A DNA stretch of 64,000 nt. Origin: Escherichia phage AV123. The position numbers were made by a program, and so were the translations under genes. Positions 11,218-26,814 of this stretch are shown in pieces. The DNA is taken from sequence record OR352953.1; one strand, given 5' to 3'. Below the pieces are notes generated by a model. That model saw only the letters and a program-made list of their open reading frames with translations. It was not told where the DNA came from and ran no database searches. Within the stretch, counting starts at the first letter, position 1. Each line of letters begins with the position of its first letter.

Positions 11218-12345
11218 ATGAAATACACGATTTATGGTGATATTGTAAGTGTAAATAAAGATATGGGCGTGGAATCTAACTATCTTCCACCTGGATTCTA
11301 TACTGTTAGTCGTGATCCCCTTGGCAATTACTTTTTAAGCCGTGGTAATCTAACAGGTGTACCGGATGTTCTGTATGGTGAAACAGAAAAACGAGCAAAT
11401 CACGTTATTCGTACATTCCATCGCCGGAGTGCACAAGGTAAAAATACAGGTTTGCTCCTGACAGGCACTAAGGGCAGTGGTAAAACTATGTTAGCCAAAC
11501 TCATTAGTCGTGACCTTGTAGAAGAAGGTATTCCAACTATTATGGTTACTCAAGCCTACAGCGATGCTAATTTCATTGAACTTATTAGCAAGATCACCGA
11601 CAAAGCAGTGATTATTTTTGACGAGTTTGATAAAGTATATGAGAAGAAACAAGATCAAGAAGCACTTCTCACTTTGTTAGATGGTACTGGCAGTGGTAAT
11701 AAACTGTTTATTCTAACTAAAAACAGTGGCTTTATCTCTGAATTCTTTCTAAATCGTCCTAGTCGTGTGTTTTATAATTTTAATTATGATAAAATCTCAC
11801 TAGAAACTATGATTGACTATTTAGATAAAAACCTGGATAACAAAGCACACTTTGATAATTTCCAAAGGCTTTGGGATGTAAGTTTAGAGTTGTCCTTTGA
11901 TGTGATCCAAGGTATAGTAGAAGAACTTAATTTCTACCCTGATTTATCCTTTAAAGAATGCATCTCTATGATGGGCGTTTCTTTGGGTGGTGGTAATAAG
12001 TGGGATATCAGCAGCGTTGTTATTAATGGGAAACTTCAGAAAGTTAGCTGGGTATCTAGTTGGCATAACTTCACACCTGCAATCTTTTTAGGTGGCTCGT
12101 GCACACTAGACGTGTACTTGTCATCTCCAAGTGATGCAGACTCTAAAGAAGCCCTTGCTAATAGCTCTTACGTGGTTTTTGATGATGAAGGAGATGCTCG
12201 AATTCCATTGAATGCGACAAAAATGAAAGCAGATCTTATTACAGGCGGTAAAATCGTTGTGTTTAGTGATGATCCAGAAGATTCTTTCCGTATTGTTCTG
12301 GAACCAACTATCACCAATGGTGCAACTTTGGCAAGCGTGTTTTAA
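11218..12345 (+). CDS. AAA-type ATPase domain protein
   Basis: Walker A GTKGSGKT, Walker B IIFDEFD; 375 aa. Confidence 0.65.
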   Translation: MKYTIYGDIVSVNKDMGVESNYLPPGFYTVSRDPLGNYFLSRGNLTGVPDVLYGETEKRANHVIRTFHRRSAQGKNTGLLLTGTKGSGKTMLAKLISRDLVEEGIPTIMVTQAYSDANFIELISKITDKAVIIFDEFDKVYEKKQDQEALLTLLDGTGSGNKLFILTKNSGFISEFFLNRPSRVFYNFNYDKISLETMIDYLDKNLDNKAHFDNFQRLWDVSLELSFDVIQGIVEELNFYPDLSFKECISMMGVSLGGGNKWDISSVVINGKLQKVSWVSSWHNFTPAIFLGGSCTLDVYLSSPSDADSKEALANSSYVVFDDEGDARIPLNATKMKADLITGGKIVVFSDDPEDSFRIVLEPTITNGATLASVF

Positions 12346-12419: not shown

Positions 12420-13409
12420 ATGACAGCACCAAAATCATGGGAACAATATAAAGAAGAGTGTATACCAATAGCAGAGAGTAAGCAAATCCAAATCTTAGGA
12501 TGGACGGGACAATGGAAAGGGGTCCACACAAAACTTGATTTGTTGTGCCATTGTGGTTATAAATGGGATACTACAAGTATTAACAGTTTTAAATGTGGTA
12601 GCGGTTGTCCACAATGTAGGAGGAAGAATATAAGGAAGTCACAAACAATGTCCGACGATCAACATATTGCAGATTTCTTTTCTACAGGGGAATTTAAGGA
12701 AGGCACTATCTTCACTAACACAGGAACACGGGGTAAAGGATGTAGGAATATTATCTGGATGGTTGAATGTCCTGTTTGCTCTCATGATGAATATGTTCAA
12801 GCAGGTGTTTGTGATGGTAAATTTTACTCTGAAGGAGATAACCTTAAACGAGGGTATATTCCGTGTCGTTGTGGGAACTATCGGTATACAGAAGACCAGA
12901 TCACCTATAGGGTAAAAAAGGAAGTAGAAGGGAAAGGGTATGTCTGGGTAGATTGGATTACCAAACCCTCTTCTATAGGTAAGTTTAAATATCTTTGTCT
13001 TGTGCATGGTGAGCAGATAGGGAGTGCTAATAATTTATTAAGCCTCGGTCGAGGTTGTCCTATGTGTGCTGGTCATAGTCAGCAGCAGTTATATATTAAT
13101 ATTGTTAAGGATGATAATATTATAGTTGCTCTTAAGTTTGGTATAGCTAAAGATAGTGATAGGCGATTAAACATTCAAAATAGCCGTAATCTGTTTTTTA
13201 TGGAACGTATTTGTTTATATGATTTTAGCACAGTGAAACAGTGTAAGGCTGCTGAAAGAGCTATAAAGAAAAAATTAAAAACTGGTATTTTAACAGCAAG
13301 AGAGTTGAAAGACGGTCATACAGAAACAGTAAGTGTTTCTGATTTGGAAAATCTTCAAAAAATTATTACACAATATGGTGGCAAGTTAGTATACAATAAG
13401 GAGGTGTAA
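12420..13409 (+). CDS. zinc-ribbon repeat protein with C-terminal T5orf172/GIY-YIG-like domain
   Basis: four C..C pairs; C-terminal YINIV..ALKFGIAKDSDRRL fits T5orf172 pattern. Confidence 0.45.
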   Translation: MTAPKSWEQYKEECIPIAESKQIQILGWTGQWKGVHTKLDLLCHCGYKWDTTSINSFKCGSGCPQCRRKNIRKSQTMSDDQHIADFFSTGEFKEGTIFTNTGTRGKGCRNIIWMVECPVCSHDEYVQAGVCDGKFYSEGDNLKRGYIPCRCGNYRYTEDQITYRVKKEVEGKGYVWVDWITKPSSIGKFKYLCLVHGEQIGSANNLLSLGRGCPMCAGHSQQQLYINIVKDDNIIVALKFGIAKDSDRRLNIQNSRNLFFMERICLYDFSTVKQCKAAERAIKKKLKTGILTARELKDGHTETVSVSDLENLQKIITQYGGKLVYNKEV

Positions 13410-13961
13410 ATGCGGATTACTGATAAGTATGTGTTCTTCTTTTCAGCAAAAGATGAATTTAGCAACTGGTATCTATCATCTTTTATTGAACCTTTAGCAC
13501 CCAAGTATAATAATTCTATTACAAGTTCTGTTGAATTTACTTGTGTGGAACAATATATGATGTGGAGAAAAGCATGTTTGTTTTATGATTACAGTATTGC
13601 ATCTTCTATTTTAACCGGAGATCTAAGATATACAGGAGAAAAAGAACAAGCATATTATAAGCGACTAGGCAGATTAGTTAAAGATTATGATGAAGATACC
13701 TGGACTTCTTTACGGGAGAAGATTGTCAAACGTGGTTTGTATCTTAAATACACACAAAATGAAGATCTCAAAAATAAACTTATAACCTACGCAGATAAGG
13801 AGTTCGTAGAGGCAAGCCCTTATGATTCTATTTATGGTATCAAAATGGGGATGTGGGATCGTGACGTGGAAAATAAGGACTGTTGGAAAGGACAAAATCT
13901 TTTAGGAAAATGGCATACAGACCTTGCTGTTTATCTAAAAGCACAATCTGATATTTCCTGA
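13410..13961 (+). CDS. NADAR (YbiA-like) domain protein
   Basis: 183 aa; FF.S..EFSNW, VEQYMMW.KA, SPYDSIYGIKMG, NLLGK motifs recalled from NADAR/DUF1768. Confidence 0.6.
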   Translation: MRITDKYVFFFSAKDEFSNWYLSSFIEPLAPKYNNSITSSVEFTCVEQYMMWRKACLFYDYSIASSILTGDLRYTGEKEQAYYKRLGRLVKDYDEDTWTSLREKIVKRGLYLKYTQNEDLKNKLITYADKEFVEASPYDSIYGIKMGMWDRDVENKDCWKGQNLLGKWHTDLAVYLKAQSDIS

Positions 13962-14175
13962 TATTTTGAAAATTTTTATTTTTATAAAAAGGGGTGTGGG
14001 TTTCATGTACGGAAATTCACCCTCTGAATAATATATTCAGAGTAAATATTATTTTGTACTCTGTTAATAAATTATTTAATTTGTTTGTTGGATTATGATA
14101 TCTGGTTTTTAAAAGGCATACTATCTCTTAACTACTATTTATAACAGAACAGTAAAATCATTTTTATAAAAAGGA

Positions 14176-14382
14176 CAAAATTATTTAAAGTTTTTACAGA
14201 TTTTTGGATACAAATTTTGAAAATGAAAAGTTCAAGTTTGGTCAAAATTATTTAAAGTTTTTGTATGTATTTCTATCCAGATTTTGAAAATGAAAACTTC
14301 AATTTTTTAAAAATTCCCCAGTTTATTTAAAGTTTTTTTGCCTTTTTCCGTAGAAAAATCAAAAATGAAAAGTTCAATTTCG
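14176..14382. repeat. three tandem ~65 bp AT-rich direct repeats
   Basis: units at 14176, 14243, 14320 sharing ATTTAAAGTTTTT...ATTTTGAAAATGAAAAGTTCAA. Confidence 0.7.
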
Positions 14383-14400
14383 TGTTTTTATAGGTGTGTT

Positions 14401-14513
14401 AATGAGAATCATTTTCGTTTGTAAATGAGAATCATTATCATTTAACTATGTAAGTGATAATCATTCTCACTAAGAGAATGAGAATCATTAGCAAATGAGA
14501 ATTTTTCTCATTT
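14401..14513. promoter_or_regulatory. cluster of five Fur-box-like palindromes (ATGAGAAT-C-ATTCTCAT family)
   Basis: copies at 14401, 14424, 14454, 14474, 14493; one symmetric substitution from E. coli Fur core TGATAATCATTATCA. Confidence 0.5.
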
Positions 14514-14774
14514 AGAGAATAACGCGCAGGGGTGGTGTTTGTCTCGCGCTCCCGTGTCCCCTCGCCATACAATAAGAATAGCATAACCAACAACAAAAGC
14601 AAGCGATTATTTTTATCTTTACATTTCTTTACAAATTTATTTTAGACGAGCTACCAGCGATCAACCTTCCAACCAGTGCCCCCTGGTATGTTAGCCCCGC
14701 CTTTACGCCGTGGGGATGGCGCTTCCTCTTCTGTATGTAAAACAGTATAAGCCCGATCCCTGGGCTTGTCAAGA

Positions 14775-15041
14775 TTATTTTTTGTTTTCTTGCCAGGATA
14801 GGACACCTAACCAAAAATACATGTCGCCCCGCGCCCCTGGCGGGATCTTGCTTTCCCCGCCGCCACTGCAAGCCCATAGATAACCATTTGCGAACGTATC
14901 AAAATGATCTATTTCTTCCACCTTATGATCGCCCAGGTTGAGAACGGTTTCAACCTTTAAGCCCGTTGCGCTTGCTACCTGGTGCACCGTGCCGCCTTGC
15001 CAGCCTAATGAGTGCATGAGGTGTGAAGTAGTATTTGTCAT
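14775..15041 (-). CDS. hypothetical protein in GC-rich island
   Basis: 88 aa; ATG 15039-15041 with AAAGGG RBS; GC-rich unlike surroundings; overlaps a second ORF (14629-14877) in another frame. Confidence 0.35.
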   Translation of the reverse strand: MTNTTSHLMHSLGWQGGTVHQVASATGLKVETVLNLGDHKVEEIDHFDTFANGYLWACSGGGESKIPPGARGDMYFWLGVLSWQENKK

Positions 15042-15152
15042 GGTATCGCCCTTTCTTTGATGTGCGCCCTGGTTGGCGCGGTAGAAAGATAATAGCCCTT
15101 TCCTTTATAGATAGCAAGCAAAAAAGAAATGAAAAAAAGATTAAAAAAGGGG

Positions 15153-15181
15153 TTGACGGTTGGAACGATTAACGCTATTTT
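15153..15181 (+). promoter_or_regulatory. candidate sigma70 promoter
   Basis: TTGACG-17-TATTTT upstream of 15247 ORF. Confidence 0.3.
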
Positions 15182-15246
15182 GTTAGCCGTTCCAGTGTGG
15201 ATCACTGTAGCAATTGTTGTTTCAATCATTCTATAAGGCGCACACT

Positions 15247-15387
15247 ATGAGCAAGGTAATTAATCATAAAGAGTTAAACCCTACCCTTTCAATGAGTGAA
15301 TGTACCGATGGTTTTTGGCTGTATGATGATACGCGCGGTATGAATTTAGCCATGCGTGAAAAAAACAGAAGAGGCGGCGTATATTAA
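15247..15387 (+). CDS. small ORF (46 aa), possibly 5' part of a frameshifted gene
   Basis: ATG 15247; ends shortly after an A7 tract (15359-15365). Confidence 0.35.
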   Translation: MSKVINHKELNPTLSMSECTDGFWLYDDTRGMNLAMREKNRRGGVY

Positions 15388-15529
15388 AGCCCTGGGCTAC
15401 TATCAGGAGCGATTAAAGGAAGTAGAAAACAATTATAATAACCTAAAAGCAAAAGTAGATCACTTTATCAGCCAGGTAGCTCATGACGACGATGATCACT
15501 ACTGCGAACAATGTGGATCATATAGTTAA
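15356..15529 (+). CDS. small ORF in +1 frame, possibly 3' part of a frameshifted gene
   Basis: open from 15350; GTG at 15356; coiled-coil-like sequence; overlaps upstream ORF at the A7 tract. Confidence 0.35.
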   Translation: MKKTEEAAYIKALGYYQERLKEVENNYNNLKAKVDHFISQVAHDDDDHYCEQCGSYS

Positions 15530-15547
15530 AATTATCTAAAAATATTC

Positions 15548-15607
15548 TTGACAACGTTTTTTAATCTGATAAGATGTAACAAATAAGGCGGGAAGTGGTT
15601 TCCCACC
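15548..15607 (+). promoter_or_regulatory. promoter plus leader stem-loop cassette 1
   Basis: TTGACA-16-TAAGAT then GGCGGGAAGTGGTTTCCCACC hairpin, RBS, ATG 15633. Confidence 0.6.
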
Positions 15608-15632
15608 AGGCAATCAAAGAAAGGGTAACACA

Positions 15633-15995
15633 ATGAGCAAGCAAATCAATACTATCATGTTAAACCTGGTATCTTTCCGCGATGACGTGAAAAACCTTCC
15701 GCGTGATGCAGTGGATGCACGGATCGAAAGCTATCGCACACAGATCGCAACATTACCGTTAAAACGTGATCAACATGCCGCTAATATGATGCTTGATGCT
15801 ATGATTAAAAAGATGATTCAGTGTGATATTACCCTGGCTTATGAATATGCTGGCGATCTATTTGTAACATACAATAAACCCGTTCCAGGTATGAGCACAA
15901 CCGAAGAATTGCATGCCTTAAATCTGAGACAAGATGCATGGGATAACATGCGCCGTGTTATGGTATGGGTAGAAAGCGGCAAAATTTACGCGTAA
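15633..15995 (+). CDS. hypothetical early protein
   Basis: 120 aa; AAAGGG RBS. Confidence 0.6.
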   Translation: MSKQINTIMLNLVSFRDDVKNLPRDAVDARIESYRTQIATLPLKRDQHAANMMLDAMIKKMIQCDITLAYEYAGDLFVTYNKPVPGMSTTEELHALNLRQDAWDNMRRVMVWVESGKIYA

Positions 15996-15998
15996 AGA

Positions 15999-16052
15999 TT
16001 GACATTGCACTAAAACCTGATAAGCTATCTTAAAGCGGGAACTATTCCCGCT
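15999..16052 (+). promoter_or_regulatory. promoter plus leader stem-loop cassette 2
   Basis: TTGACA-16-TAAGCT then AGCGGGAACTATTCCCGCT hairpin. Confidence 0.55.
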
Positions 16053-25116: not shown

Positions 25117-25321
25117 ACCTAAATAAAGATGATAGCTTTTACCTATCAAAAACGTTCACCGAAAAAAGTGAATAGATCGCGGTATCGAGCTAATCAAGGA
25201 GCAGATGAACAACCATACCATGAAGATCATAAGGCGCTTACAACGTGTTTTAGACCGCTTATTTTTAATTTCTTCATGTAATTACCTGGCAAAAACAGCC
25301 TTTTTCTTGTCTTTCCTCTTA

Positions 25322-25392
25322 AATGATAATCATTCTTATTTATAGCTGATTATTTATGCAATAAATTGCATAATGCAATAATGAGAATCATT
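25322..25392. promoter_or_regulatory. two Fur-box-like palindromes
   Basis: AATGATAATCATTCTTAT at 25322 and AATGAGAATCATT at 25380. Confidence 0.45.
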
Positions 25393-25801
25393 CTTAACTT
25401 AAGACCATCTAACCTATAAAATAATAAGTTATCTAACTAAATTAAAACTAATTATCTCACCTTTATTTATAACTTACTGTTACTATCTCATTGATAACAT
25501 TGTATTAAACAATAATAACTAATATAAATCATTACTAAGCTAAATATAATCTATCTAACCCTTAAAACTACAATTATAATCTATCGAATTGTTGCACAAA
25601 GTAACTATTAAATTGTTAGTAACATTACTAAATAATTCACATCCTATCTATTTATGATCTAATCTTTACCTTCCTATCTATTACTTAGATAATCATTTCA
25701 TACAGTAACCATTTCATGTAGTAATCATTCCATACAATAACTATAACAAGAAATATAATTCGCAAGCGTATCATTAGCAGCCTATGCCGGACACATAGGC
25801 G

Positions 25802-25948
25802 GCTAATAATAACGCAACTACACACCCCACATAATAACCATCACCGATAGTTATTATTTGTGCTTATGTAGCTTGCAACAATTGCAAGCGCAACAATATA
25901 CTAGGGTATATTGTATCCCTTACATTGTTGCGGTGCGTTATTATTAGC
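25802..25948. repeat. long-range inverted repeat with internal palindromes
   Basis: GCTAATAATAACGCAAC at 25802 versus GTTGCG(GTG)CGTTATTATTAGC at 25927; inner ACAATATAC..GTATATTGT. Confidence 0.6.
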
Positions 25949-26241
25949 TAATGTTTAGAACATTGGCTATAATATAAGCTATCCAATAATAAACATGGTG
26001 AATAATGACACTGATGATCATAATGCGCCACCCTCCAGGGGGCGCTATGTGAACACAAAGAAATCTTTCTTGTCAAGAAAAATATCACCATTATTGCGCA
26101 AAATTATTTATATCTGAATAGATGATTTTTCATACTATTGCCCCCTTGATTATTACCATTTGTTGAGCCTACTTTCTTAAAAGCGCAATAAAATAGAATT
26201 ATATTGATTTTTAGTCGGTTTTATAGTACAGAAAGTATGCA

Positions 26242-26456
26242 AATGATAATCATTATCAGCTATCTTCCACGGGTGGCACTATTTCACACCAGATCATTTC
26301 ATTTGGCAAGGTGTATATAGATGTTTAGACTTGCCAAGCCATTGATTTCCTTAGAATTTATCTGTTTTGTTGTGAGTAGTACCTTTCTTGCTTAGAAAAT
26401 AATCAAAAGTCTTATAAGTCATTGAATGATAATACAAATGATAATTATTCTCATTG
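26242..26456. promoter_or_regulatory. Fur-box-like sites
   Basis: AATGATAATCATTATC at 26242 (15/15 to Fur core) and GAATGATAAT..ATGATAATTATTCTCATTG at 26424. Confidence 0.5.
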
Positions 26457-26814
26457 ATATTTGAGGGGGACGGTCGGCAGAAATCGGGGGGTGCTGAAAA
26501 TCGCGTTAAGCACCTCTCGCAAGCGAGCAGTATTTTGCGGCAAGTTATTGATATTATTGACTTTACGCTTATGAAAAGGGGGTGTGTCGAAATAAATCGG
26601 GTATACCGGAAAATTTTTGTGGCATAGATATTTATTTGTCTATATTATGTACAAAGGGGTGTGTTAAAAATAATAGGTATATATAGAATAATTGATAGGG
26701 AATATCTATACTAATTCCTCCATTAATGATATTCCTATGCTACTGCTCTTGTAATAGATGAAAAGACGCTGTATGATGTGTGGCATGAAACGTAAACTTA
26801 TAAAGGAGTCTGAT

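Follow-up and report, generated by a model that had tools for sequence, protein, structure and literature searches.

Few small RNAs (sRNAs) of virulent phages have a known role. The closest to the element described here are sRNA1 and sRNA2 of PAK_P3 and the T4 RNAs of bands C and D, all of them non-coding RNAs of about 100 nt encoded in intergenic DNA of a virulent myophage. The PAK_P3 sRNAs are late and were found by RNA-seq, and sRNA2 contains an 11-nt stretch identical to tRNA T-loops (PMC4933390). The rV5-like phage phiTE carries pseudo-ToxI, a non-coding pseudoknot RNA that acts by molecular mimicry as a decoy of the abortive-infection toxin ToxN (PMC3475682). We have analyzed a stretch of 64,000 nt (hereafter, the window) of Escherichia phage AV123 (sequence record OR352953.1), identified by megablast of positions 14000-15600 as a phi92-like Justusliebigvirus (Stephanstirmvirinae), and we describe in it RNA1, a previously unannotated, conserved, structured phage RNA gene of about 85-100 nt on the minus strand.

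RNA1 is comparable to the PAK_P3 and T4 RNAs in size and setting, and the resemblance of its 3' tail to the D-arm of tRNA-fMet (see below) parallels the T-loop stretch of PAK_P3 sRNA2. It is not, however, a member of any of the three systems. No sequence resemblance to the PAK_P3 sRNAs was seen by eye, and RNA1 was predicted from a host-type promoter and comparative structure. ToxI-type RNAs are tandem 36-nt repeats cut by the toxin, whereas RNA1 is a single unit of about 90 nt. RNA1 is itself present in phiTE (locus L028), and a ToxI-like decoy was discarded when a search with a ToxI sequence found nothing ToxI-like in the 8.9 kb around it. A type III antitoxin RNA was also discarded: RNA1 is single-copy in the window, a repeat search found no tandem unit, and there is no adjacent toxin gene.

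Promoter, fold and distribution of RNA1

The elements of the RNA1 gene, in the direction of its predicted transcription, are the following:

14772-14744, minus strand: P1, a sigma-70 promoter, TTGACA-17-TATACT (match 11/12), from a consensus scan and conservation
~14737..14651, minus strand: RNA1, a structured small RNA, with predicted start at ~14736-14738 and conserved sequence stopping at ~14645-14651
14706..14721, minus strand: helix S1 of RNA1, CGCC (14721-14718) with GGCG (14709-14706), from the alignments and the Aeromonas-phage variant
14695..14715, minus strand: helix S2 of RNA1, CCCC (14715-14712) with GGGG (14698-14695), crossing S1 to form an H-type pseudoknot, from compensatory variants
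14670..14690, minus strand: hairpin H2 of RNA1, CA[U]ACCAG/CUGGUUG, with a one-base bulge and the loop GGGGCA, from compensatory changes
14651..14668, minus strand: 3' tail of RNA1, AAGGUUGAUCGCUGGUAG, predicted single-stranded and nearly invariant (consensus AAGGUNRAUCGCCGGUAG)

By its sequence, P1 is a sigma-70 promoter in which hexamers, spacing and position are conserved and the spacer is variable. Among 47 distinct relatives it matched the consensus at 9/12 positions or more in 45, and its -10 hexamer ended 4-8 nt before the start of the RNA model in 43; the hexamers were kept while 39 different spacers occurred. Since hexamers and distance to the RNA are kept while the spacers vary, P1 bears the signature of a working promoter. 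The spacer (14749-14767) folds as a GC hairpin in 32 of 45 relatives, often with a GNRA loop, and with a mean energy of -8.7 kcal/mol versus -3.9 kcal/mol for shuffles. In the window this hairpin also scores as terminator-like for the upstream gene and is followed by UGUUUU. We infer that the terminator of the upstream gene is nested inside P1, where it would stop the upstream transcript so that RNA1 starts cleanly.

From 5' to 3' on the minus strand (~14737 to 14651), RNA1 has the layout ACAGAAGAGGAAG-CGCC-AU-CCCC-AC-GGCG-UAAAGGC-GGGG-CUAA-CA[U]ACCAG-GGGGCA-CUGGUUG-G-AAGGUUGAUCGCUGGUAG, in which the third loop of the pseudoknot, UAAAGGC, is A-rich. Hairpin H2 was obtained with RNAalifold; at one of its pairs, A-U and G-C were equally frequent (20:20). 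Compensatory changes occur at 6 of its 7 pairs (for instance AU in 39 and GC in 21 sequences at one of them), and other lineages have wholly different H2 stem sequences; short versions have loops that include GAAA and GCAA, and one (locus L058) has a UUCG motif. The crossing helix S2 was added from the divergent copies CCAA:UUGG, CCAG:CUGG and CCAU:AUGG; with the further variant CUCC:GGGG, two of its four pairs show changes on both sides. The cells of S1 are 94-95% paired but nearly invariant in the alignments, and in Aeromonas phages this helix is GGAC:GUCU, with two pairs altered on both sides.

The fold was evaluated in a MAFFT alignment of 29 diverse sequences that was not fitted to the structure. 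In it, 86.2% of the cells pair, compared with 77.6% in shuffles, and the covariation score was 0.210 versus 0.085 (reached by 0 of 500 shuffles). When the partners were slid by 1-3 columns, pairing fell to 22-43%, a control that favours the fold because this was derived from the same sequences. The same statistics were obtained with 60 model-aligned sequences. Comparative sequence analysis thus gives RNA1 an H-type pseudoknot with crossing, compensated helices; its support is real, and thin for S1, where it comes from the Aeromonas phages alone. The first-pass annotation had offered a structured non-coding RNA as one explanation for the whole region of 14530-15060, and covariation bears this out for 14651-14737 of the minus strand only. 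The minus strand is indicated by the orientation of P1, by an excess of G-U over A-C cells (6 versus 1-2 in the core pairs, 15 versus 5 with the outer pair), and by the GAAA and GCAA loops and the UUCG motif, which occur in the minus-strand sense. One-nucleotide insertions and deletions (indels) between close relatives indicate that the RNA1 region is not coding.

The luteovirus frameshift, preQ1-I and SAM-II elements are compact H-type pseudoknots with an A-rich third loop. RNA1 shares with them two short crossing G-C helices, first and second loops of 1-2 nt, and a third loop that is rich in A (NUAAAY or NAAAGGC) and positioned for the groove of helix 1, but it has no slippery site or through-running open reading frame (ORF), no Rfam aptamer match and no expression platform. 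Like the RNA inhibitors of clustered regularly interspaced short palindromic repeats (RNA anti-CRISPRs), with which phages mimic a solitary CRISPR repeat, it is a promoter-driven GC-rich hairpin RNA in an AT-rich phage, and its S2 stem plus CUAA loosely recall the type I-E repeat; unlike in those RNAs, the stem sequence changes freely among variant bodies. Comparison of RNA1 with the E. coli K-12 I-E repeat, the one repeat used, gave a score of 8-9 versus 6.9 +/- 1.4, which is chance level, and this candidate was rejected. An Hfq-dependent trans-acting sRNA was not supported either, no U-tailed Rho-independent terminator being found at the RNA1 3' end.

Analysis of positions 14516-14780 by blastn revealed matches in 234 phage records, including Vequintavirinae of Klebsiella, Salmonella, Cronobacter, Pectobacterium, Erwinia and Acinetobacter at 68-86% identity, and none in 5,426 E. 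coli genomes; as judged from these sequences, no other DNA of the region is as conserved as the island's non-coding half. In the records of relatives the RNA1 stretch is unannotated or lies under small "hypothetical" calls. Pattern scans of IMG/VR, metagenomes and genomes added further loci, and a profile search confirmed about 50 true homologs. A covariance model, R1, was built from the RNA1 alignment; it matches the window once (92 bits, E 5e-27) and finds 60 copies in related loci; the 57 loci in which it finds the element belong to phages of hosts ranging from E. coli to Aeromonas. Of 2.5 kb of one metagenomic phage, RNA1 alone still matches a known phage at the nucleotide level. Rfam 15 gave no match to RNA1 at E < 1, none in the whole window at the gathering threshold and none in the locus of phage cardinal; its sole match in 13500-16000 was a microRNA model on the AT-rich palindromes described below, far below the gathering score. 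ARAGORN reported 0 tRNA or tmRNA genes in the window. Literature searches by topic, phage name and sequence words returned no description of the RNA1 element.

RNA1 is also found in a mobile form. In cardinal (locus L003, 2161-2888) and in a Klebsiella-type phage (L031, 6296-7040), an insert of about 730 bp interrupts the tail immediately after ...GAUCGCUGGUA. This cassette contains an ORF of 197 amino acids (aa) that matches phrog_953, "HNH endonuclease" (E 2e-81), its own TTGACA-hairpin-CATAAT promoter, and a variant RNA1 body that has CCAA:UUGG and another hairpin and that in these two distant phages joins the original tail. Pectobacterium phage P7_Pc keeps a variant RNA1 copy and a remnant of the ORF (L013, 509-700). 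The insert has the appearance of a free-standing homing endonuclease, which would cleave the DNA of the conserved tail and supply another copy in its place, and it treats RNA1 as an independent gene unit.

The RNA1 tail and its possible action

The tail is invariant or nearly so in every lineage, and it is kept in the Aeromonas phages 2L372D, 2L372X and 4L372XY, in which both pseudoknot stems are rewritten (GGAC:GUCU and CCAU:AUGG). The tail region, 14651-14676, resembles positions 5-28 of the E. coli initiator tRNA encoded by metZ (GGUGGAGCAGCCUGGUAGCUCG in the phage, GGUGGAUC-GCC-GGUAGCUCG in the tRNA). Local alignment of the tail with the metZ tRNA-fMet scored 14, versus 6.1-6.6 +/- 1.15 for shuffles (0 of 300 reaching it), in a comparison set of seven stable RNAs and for a resemblance that had been noticed before testing. 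The six other RNAs of the set (16S, 23S and 5S rRNA and three tRNAs) scored 7-11, the best of them, 5S, being reached by 13 of 300 shuffles. We consider this resemblance a lead, not a result, and mimicry of tRNA in this detail doubtful. Antisense pairing of the tail with 16S, 23S and 5S rRNA and four tRNAs yielded no duplex consistently above shuffles. Resemblances to the 16S 3' end, signal recognition particle RNA and RNase P seen by eye were dropped; Rfam supported none of them, and 16S did not stand out in the alignment test.

The interpretation that we prefer, held with roughly even confidence, is that RNA1 would be produced early and act in trans, with the folded body offering the invariant tail to a conserved partner and the RNA probably serving as a mimic or decoy. 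As P1 is a host-type promoter, RNA1 would be expected early, with the host polymerase transcribing it as soon as the first minutes of infection. The pseudoknot, the A-rich third loop and the bulged hairpin would form a stable scaffold, with the invariant tail as the working end, and the RNA would act in trans on a factor conserved across Gammaproteobacteria or across these phages. Mimicry or decoy action appears the most likely mode because the tail copies the 5' acceptor/D-arm segment of the initiator tRNA.

Several observations weigh against this interpretation. Helix S1 is almost invariant, its support coming mainly from one divergent lineage, and single-sequence folding energies were no better than those of shuffles on either strand (z ~0), so that the case for structure is one of covariation. 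The start, end and expression of RNA1 are predictions from sequence. No terminator-like site was found by a scan of the minus strand between 14650 and 14575, nor by eye in relatives; with no terminator between RNA1 and the next promoter (P2, below), RNA1 may represent no more than the 5' portion of a longer transcript extending into palindromes and AT-rich repeats. As for the tail, the tRNA-fMet resemblance was noticed before it was tested, and then against those seven RNAs alone; a 13-nt identity would not be unusual genome-wide; and the pairing of the tRNA D-stem is not kept.

A wider and rather unlikely proposal would make RNA1 a new early RNA class of phi92/rV5-like Enterobacterales myophages and related Aeromonas phages, in which a pseudoknot-hairpin scaffold displays an 18-nt copy of the initiator-tRNA acceptor/D-arm and thereby sequesters or redirects a conserved host factor (part of the translation initiation machinery or a defence nuclease that targets tRNA), with Fur-box arrays tying the non-coding hub to iron sensing or Fur titration. 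Phages like phi92, rV5 and PVP-SE1 are widely isolated and are candidates for therapy and biocontrol. Their large non-coding hubs are left blank in annotations, the inspected records having nothing or "hypothetical protein" under the element. A conserved, promoter-driven structured RNA would be a concrete, testable gene in this blank space, with a clear fold, mutational targets and a natural variant body on a mobile cassette. The terminator-inside-promoter design and the Fur-box-like arrays are leads on how early transcription is organized in these phages.

Downstream elements and rival explanations

Beyond the RNA1 tail, the following elements were recognized:

14616..14633, minus strand: direct repeat TGTAAAGA-AA-TGTAAAGA, an exact match, unique in the window, just upstream of P2
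14575..14602, minus strand: P2, a putative second promoter, TTGCTT-16-TATTCT (7/12 in the window), from conserved hexamers with a variable spacer; the consensus scan did not report it
14516..14572, minus strand: block A, a conserved GC-rich leader downstream of P2, predicted to be transcribed, with invariant GAGACAAACACC
14403..14510, no strand: five palindromes TGAGAAT-N-ATTCTCA, each differing at 1-2 positions from the phage's own consensus; in relatives they are likewise kept beside block A

The tail is followed by TTTTGTAAAGA-N2-TGTAAAGA, and TTTTGTAAAGA is conserved in nearly all relatives; the direct repeat is possibly an UP element or a protein site. P2 is better in relatives, which have TTGATC or TTGCAA with TATTAT or TATATT. 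Block A is excluded from coding by 1-nt indels in the alignments; its 18-aa ORF was rejected, the frame not being kept among relatives, and inspection found no consistent secondary structure. In two Klebsiella-type phages a diverged copy of the -10 box, block A and a Fur-like palindrome lies about 7 kb away in opposite orientation (L017, 4318-4395; L029, 4983-5060). Further along, in the AT-rich DNA of 14160-14380, there are three ~70-nt direct repeats with 71-73% identity to the reference copy, located between the palindromes and the terminator hairpin of the upstream gene (~14018-14045). No minus-strand ORF or terminator was found between RNA1/P2 and the convergent genes ending at 13961.

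Three of the five palindromes are within 2 mismatches of the E. coli Fur box TGATAAT-N-ATTATCA. The window contains 6 sites with at most 2 mismatches from the Fur consensus TGATAATNATTATCA (7-1-7), compared with 1.1 expected and 0 of 100 shuffles reaching this number; one of them, TGATAATCATTATCA at 26244, is an exact consensus site. By sequence, the palindromes could be Fur sites (for iron sensing, or for titration of Fur by the many copies of the phage genome), or else a phage protein could use them as iterons or operators. They cluster only in two AT-rich non-coding hubs, at 14403-14510 and at 25324-25338, 25382-25396, 26244-26258 and 26439-26453. The second hub (25282-26750, about 1.5 kb, GC 0.29-0.30) is mostly without ORFs of at least 50 aa, the only one being a 57-aa TTG ORF (26454-26627) near one edge. 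It contains short repeats and GC-rich islets at ~25770-25810, 26020-26050 and 26460-26540, one of which follows a Fur-like box, as block A does at 14.5 kb.

In the T7 primary origin, T4 oriF and oriG, ColE1 RNA II and the lambda origin, promoters point into binding-site repeats and an AT-rich stretch. The layout found here is similar, P1 and P2 being directed into the AT-rich DNA of 14001-14500 (GC 0.236), and the main rival to a trans-acting RNA1 is a replication origin module, an improbable alternative. The two promoters would fire into initiator-binding palindromes and an AT-rich unwinding region, and a primer or R-loop RNA would begin with RNA1 and block A, or these would serve transcriptional activation. 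This agrees with the minus-strand order (P1 and P2, then five palindromes of 15-19 bp at even spacing, then 0.236-GC DNA with the three ~70-nt repeats), with GC-rich segments, predicted to be transcribed, preceding AT-rich DNA and no terminator after RNA1. It also agrees with the duplication of the promoter/block A/palindrome unit elsewhere in some genomes and with the presence of the same palindromes in the second hub; no origin has been mapped in rV5-type phages (PMC3606486). However, neither a primer nor an activating transcript would require a pseudoknot that covaries, with a hairpin and an invariant, single-stranded tail, and none of the origins named above is known to use such an RNA. 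Moreover, promoter and RNA body are carried together by the mobile cassette, RNA1 persists in lineages whose downstream palindromes number from 0 to 4, GC skew does not switch at the island, and no initiator gene was identified beside it.

Less probable is a cis-acting leader, in which RNA1 would be a riboswitch- or attenuator-like 5' element that senses a ligand or protein and controls read-through into the downstream non-coding region. A compact, aptamer-like pseudoknot directly after a strong promoter, with no terminator to define a short RNA, would suit it, but there is no minus-strand ORF before the convergent genes to be controlled, no alternative terminator/antiterminator pairing or Rfam riboswitch match at E < 1 was found, and a second promoter follows immediately.

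We regard as slightly more improbable still a purely DNA-level element (a protein-binding, recombination or homing-endonuclease target) in which RNA structure would be incidental. The tail is indeed the insertion site of the HNH-endonuclease cassette in two phages, and conservation is highest where pairing is not predicted. However, the helices remain paired where both sides have changed and even where the sequences are entirely different, G-U cells outnumber A-C cells, RNA-type tetraloops occur in one sense only, and a conserved promoter lies at a fixed distance.

The GC-rich island, gp224 and neighbouring genes

The GC-rich island at 14530-15060 reported by the first-pass annotation was reproduced: its GC content is 0.482, whereas the window mean is 0.371 (standard deviation of 531-nt windows, 0.029), and only 0.13% of same-size (531-nt) windows reach this value. 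It adjoins 14001-14500, the most AT-rich stretch seen (GC 0.236). By piece, GC content is 0.60 in block A (14516-14572), 0.56 in RNA1 (14640-14737) and 0.49 in the 88-aa ORF (14775-15041), and an AT-rich promoter stretch (14573-14639; GC 0.24) separates GC-rich pieces. The composition is thus at the extreme upper end of the range in the window, and both homologs and RNA covariation were found in the island. It is a composite of conserved pieces of phi92/rV5-type phages packed on the minus strand, not a recent foreign import, and we have high confidence in this anatomy. Megablast of 14000-15600 matched 141 phage records, among them phi92, VEcB, cardinal and other Justusliebigvirus at 93-98% identity. 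Annotated relatives have a common gene order: two plus-strand genes, about 800 bp unannotated, a lone minus-strand coding sequence of 267 nt (phi92 gp224), and plus-strand genes.

The protein-coding features of the island are listed below; both ORFs noted in the first pass, the 88-aa one with its ribosome-binding site and the arginine (R)-rich one overlapping it in another frame, are present.

15089..15117, minus strand: candidate promoter of the 88-aa gene, TTGCTA-17-TATTAT (9/12), from the consensus scan alone
15049..15055, minus strand: GAAAGGG, the Shine-Dalgarno sequence of the 88-aa gene, located 7 nt ahead of its ATG and read from the sequence; the phi92 record annotates a ribosome-binding site at the same place
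14775..15041, minus strand: 88-aa protein gene, homolog of phi92 gp224 (phrog_19316), for a small all-alpha protein
14629..14877, minus strand: R-rich 82-aa ORF, not a gene, overlapping the gp224 3' end, P1 and RNA1

The 88-aa protein matches the phrog_19316 profile over residues 1-88 of 88 (E 2.8e-59) and has 18 homolog clusters, mostly of near-equal length and down to 45% identity, among which its N-terminal third is almost invariant. The ratio of nonsynonymous to synonymous substitution rates (dN/dS) was 0.19-0.28 in comparison with W70 and a metagenomic relative and 0.09 with a close relative, substitutions being mostly at third codon positions. This sequence evidence makes the 88-aa ORF a genuine gene, kept by purifying selection. 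An AlphaFold model of the protein is confident (predicted local distance difference test, pLDDT, 94) and all-alpha, with five helices; fold searches found no known fold relative, and a first guess from sequence, a helix-turn-helix regulator, was not supported by them. GC content at third codon positions (GC3) is 0.52, versus 0.27-0.30 in the upstream neighbours. The gp224 gene was found by tblastn in the same slot in Stephanstirmvirinae, W70, FBKp34, phiTE and others, which makes the unusual GC3 a long-standing family trait and not a sign of recent import. In Seunavirus and Mydovirus phages the slot upstream of P1 is occupied by an unrelated 61-63-aa ORF (MENGKV...; L009, 912-1103; L010, 878-1063; L012, 875-1066), so the RNA element is independent of gp224.

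The R-rich ORF is, as far as sequence can tell, not a gene, because it has no family match (neither Pfam nor PHROG), it crosses the gp224 3' end and a promoter, and close relatives differ in it by 1-nt indels. Coding readings of the non-coding part were rejected in general: neither this ORF nor one of 51 aa has family matches, and indels of 1 nt break their frames among relatives. A recently acquired foreign gene or a frameshifted pseudogene, the other explanations proposed in the first pass, would suit a GC3 of 0.52 and two overlapping ORFs in different frames but is very improbable, since the gene (dN/dS 0.09-0.28, homologs down to 45% identity) and its flanking non-coding blocks are conserved in synteny across two phage subfamilies, lying beside the RNA element in Stephanstirmvirinae and some Vequintavirinae, close relatives do carry the island, 5,426 E. 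coli genomes do not match its non-coding part, and the second ORF has no homologs and spans a stop-codon region, a promoter and an RNA whose relatives show 1-nt indels.

The hairpin quoted in the first pass, CCCGCGCCCCTGGCGGG (14828-14844), sits within the 88-aa ORF and codes for a segment of gp224 that is variable among homologs. Its score with the E. coli type I-E CRISPR repeat, 10 versus ~6.1, was reached by 2-15 of 500 shuffles and was taken as chance.

Outside the island, an additional A in a run of seven (~15359-15365), as compared with phi92 and cardinal, divides the homolog of phi92 gp225 (93 aa) at 15247-15529 into two ORFs of 57 aa; this could be a genuine frameshift, a site of slippage or an error in sequencing. 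On the other side, an AAA ATPase gene (11218-12345) and a gene for a CapR and T5orf172 endonuclease-like protein (12420-13409) precede a gene (13410-13961) encoding a NADAR-domain protein (E 6e-36). NADAR proteins are linked to reversal of DNA ADP-ribosylation, and the position of this gene directly upstream hints at an early accessory or counter-defence region.

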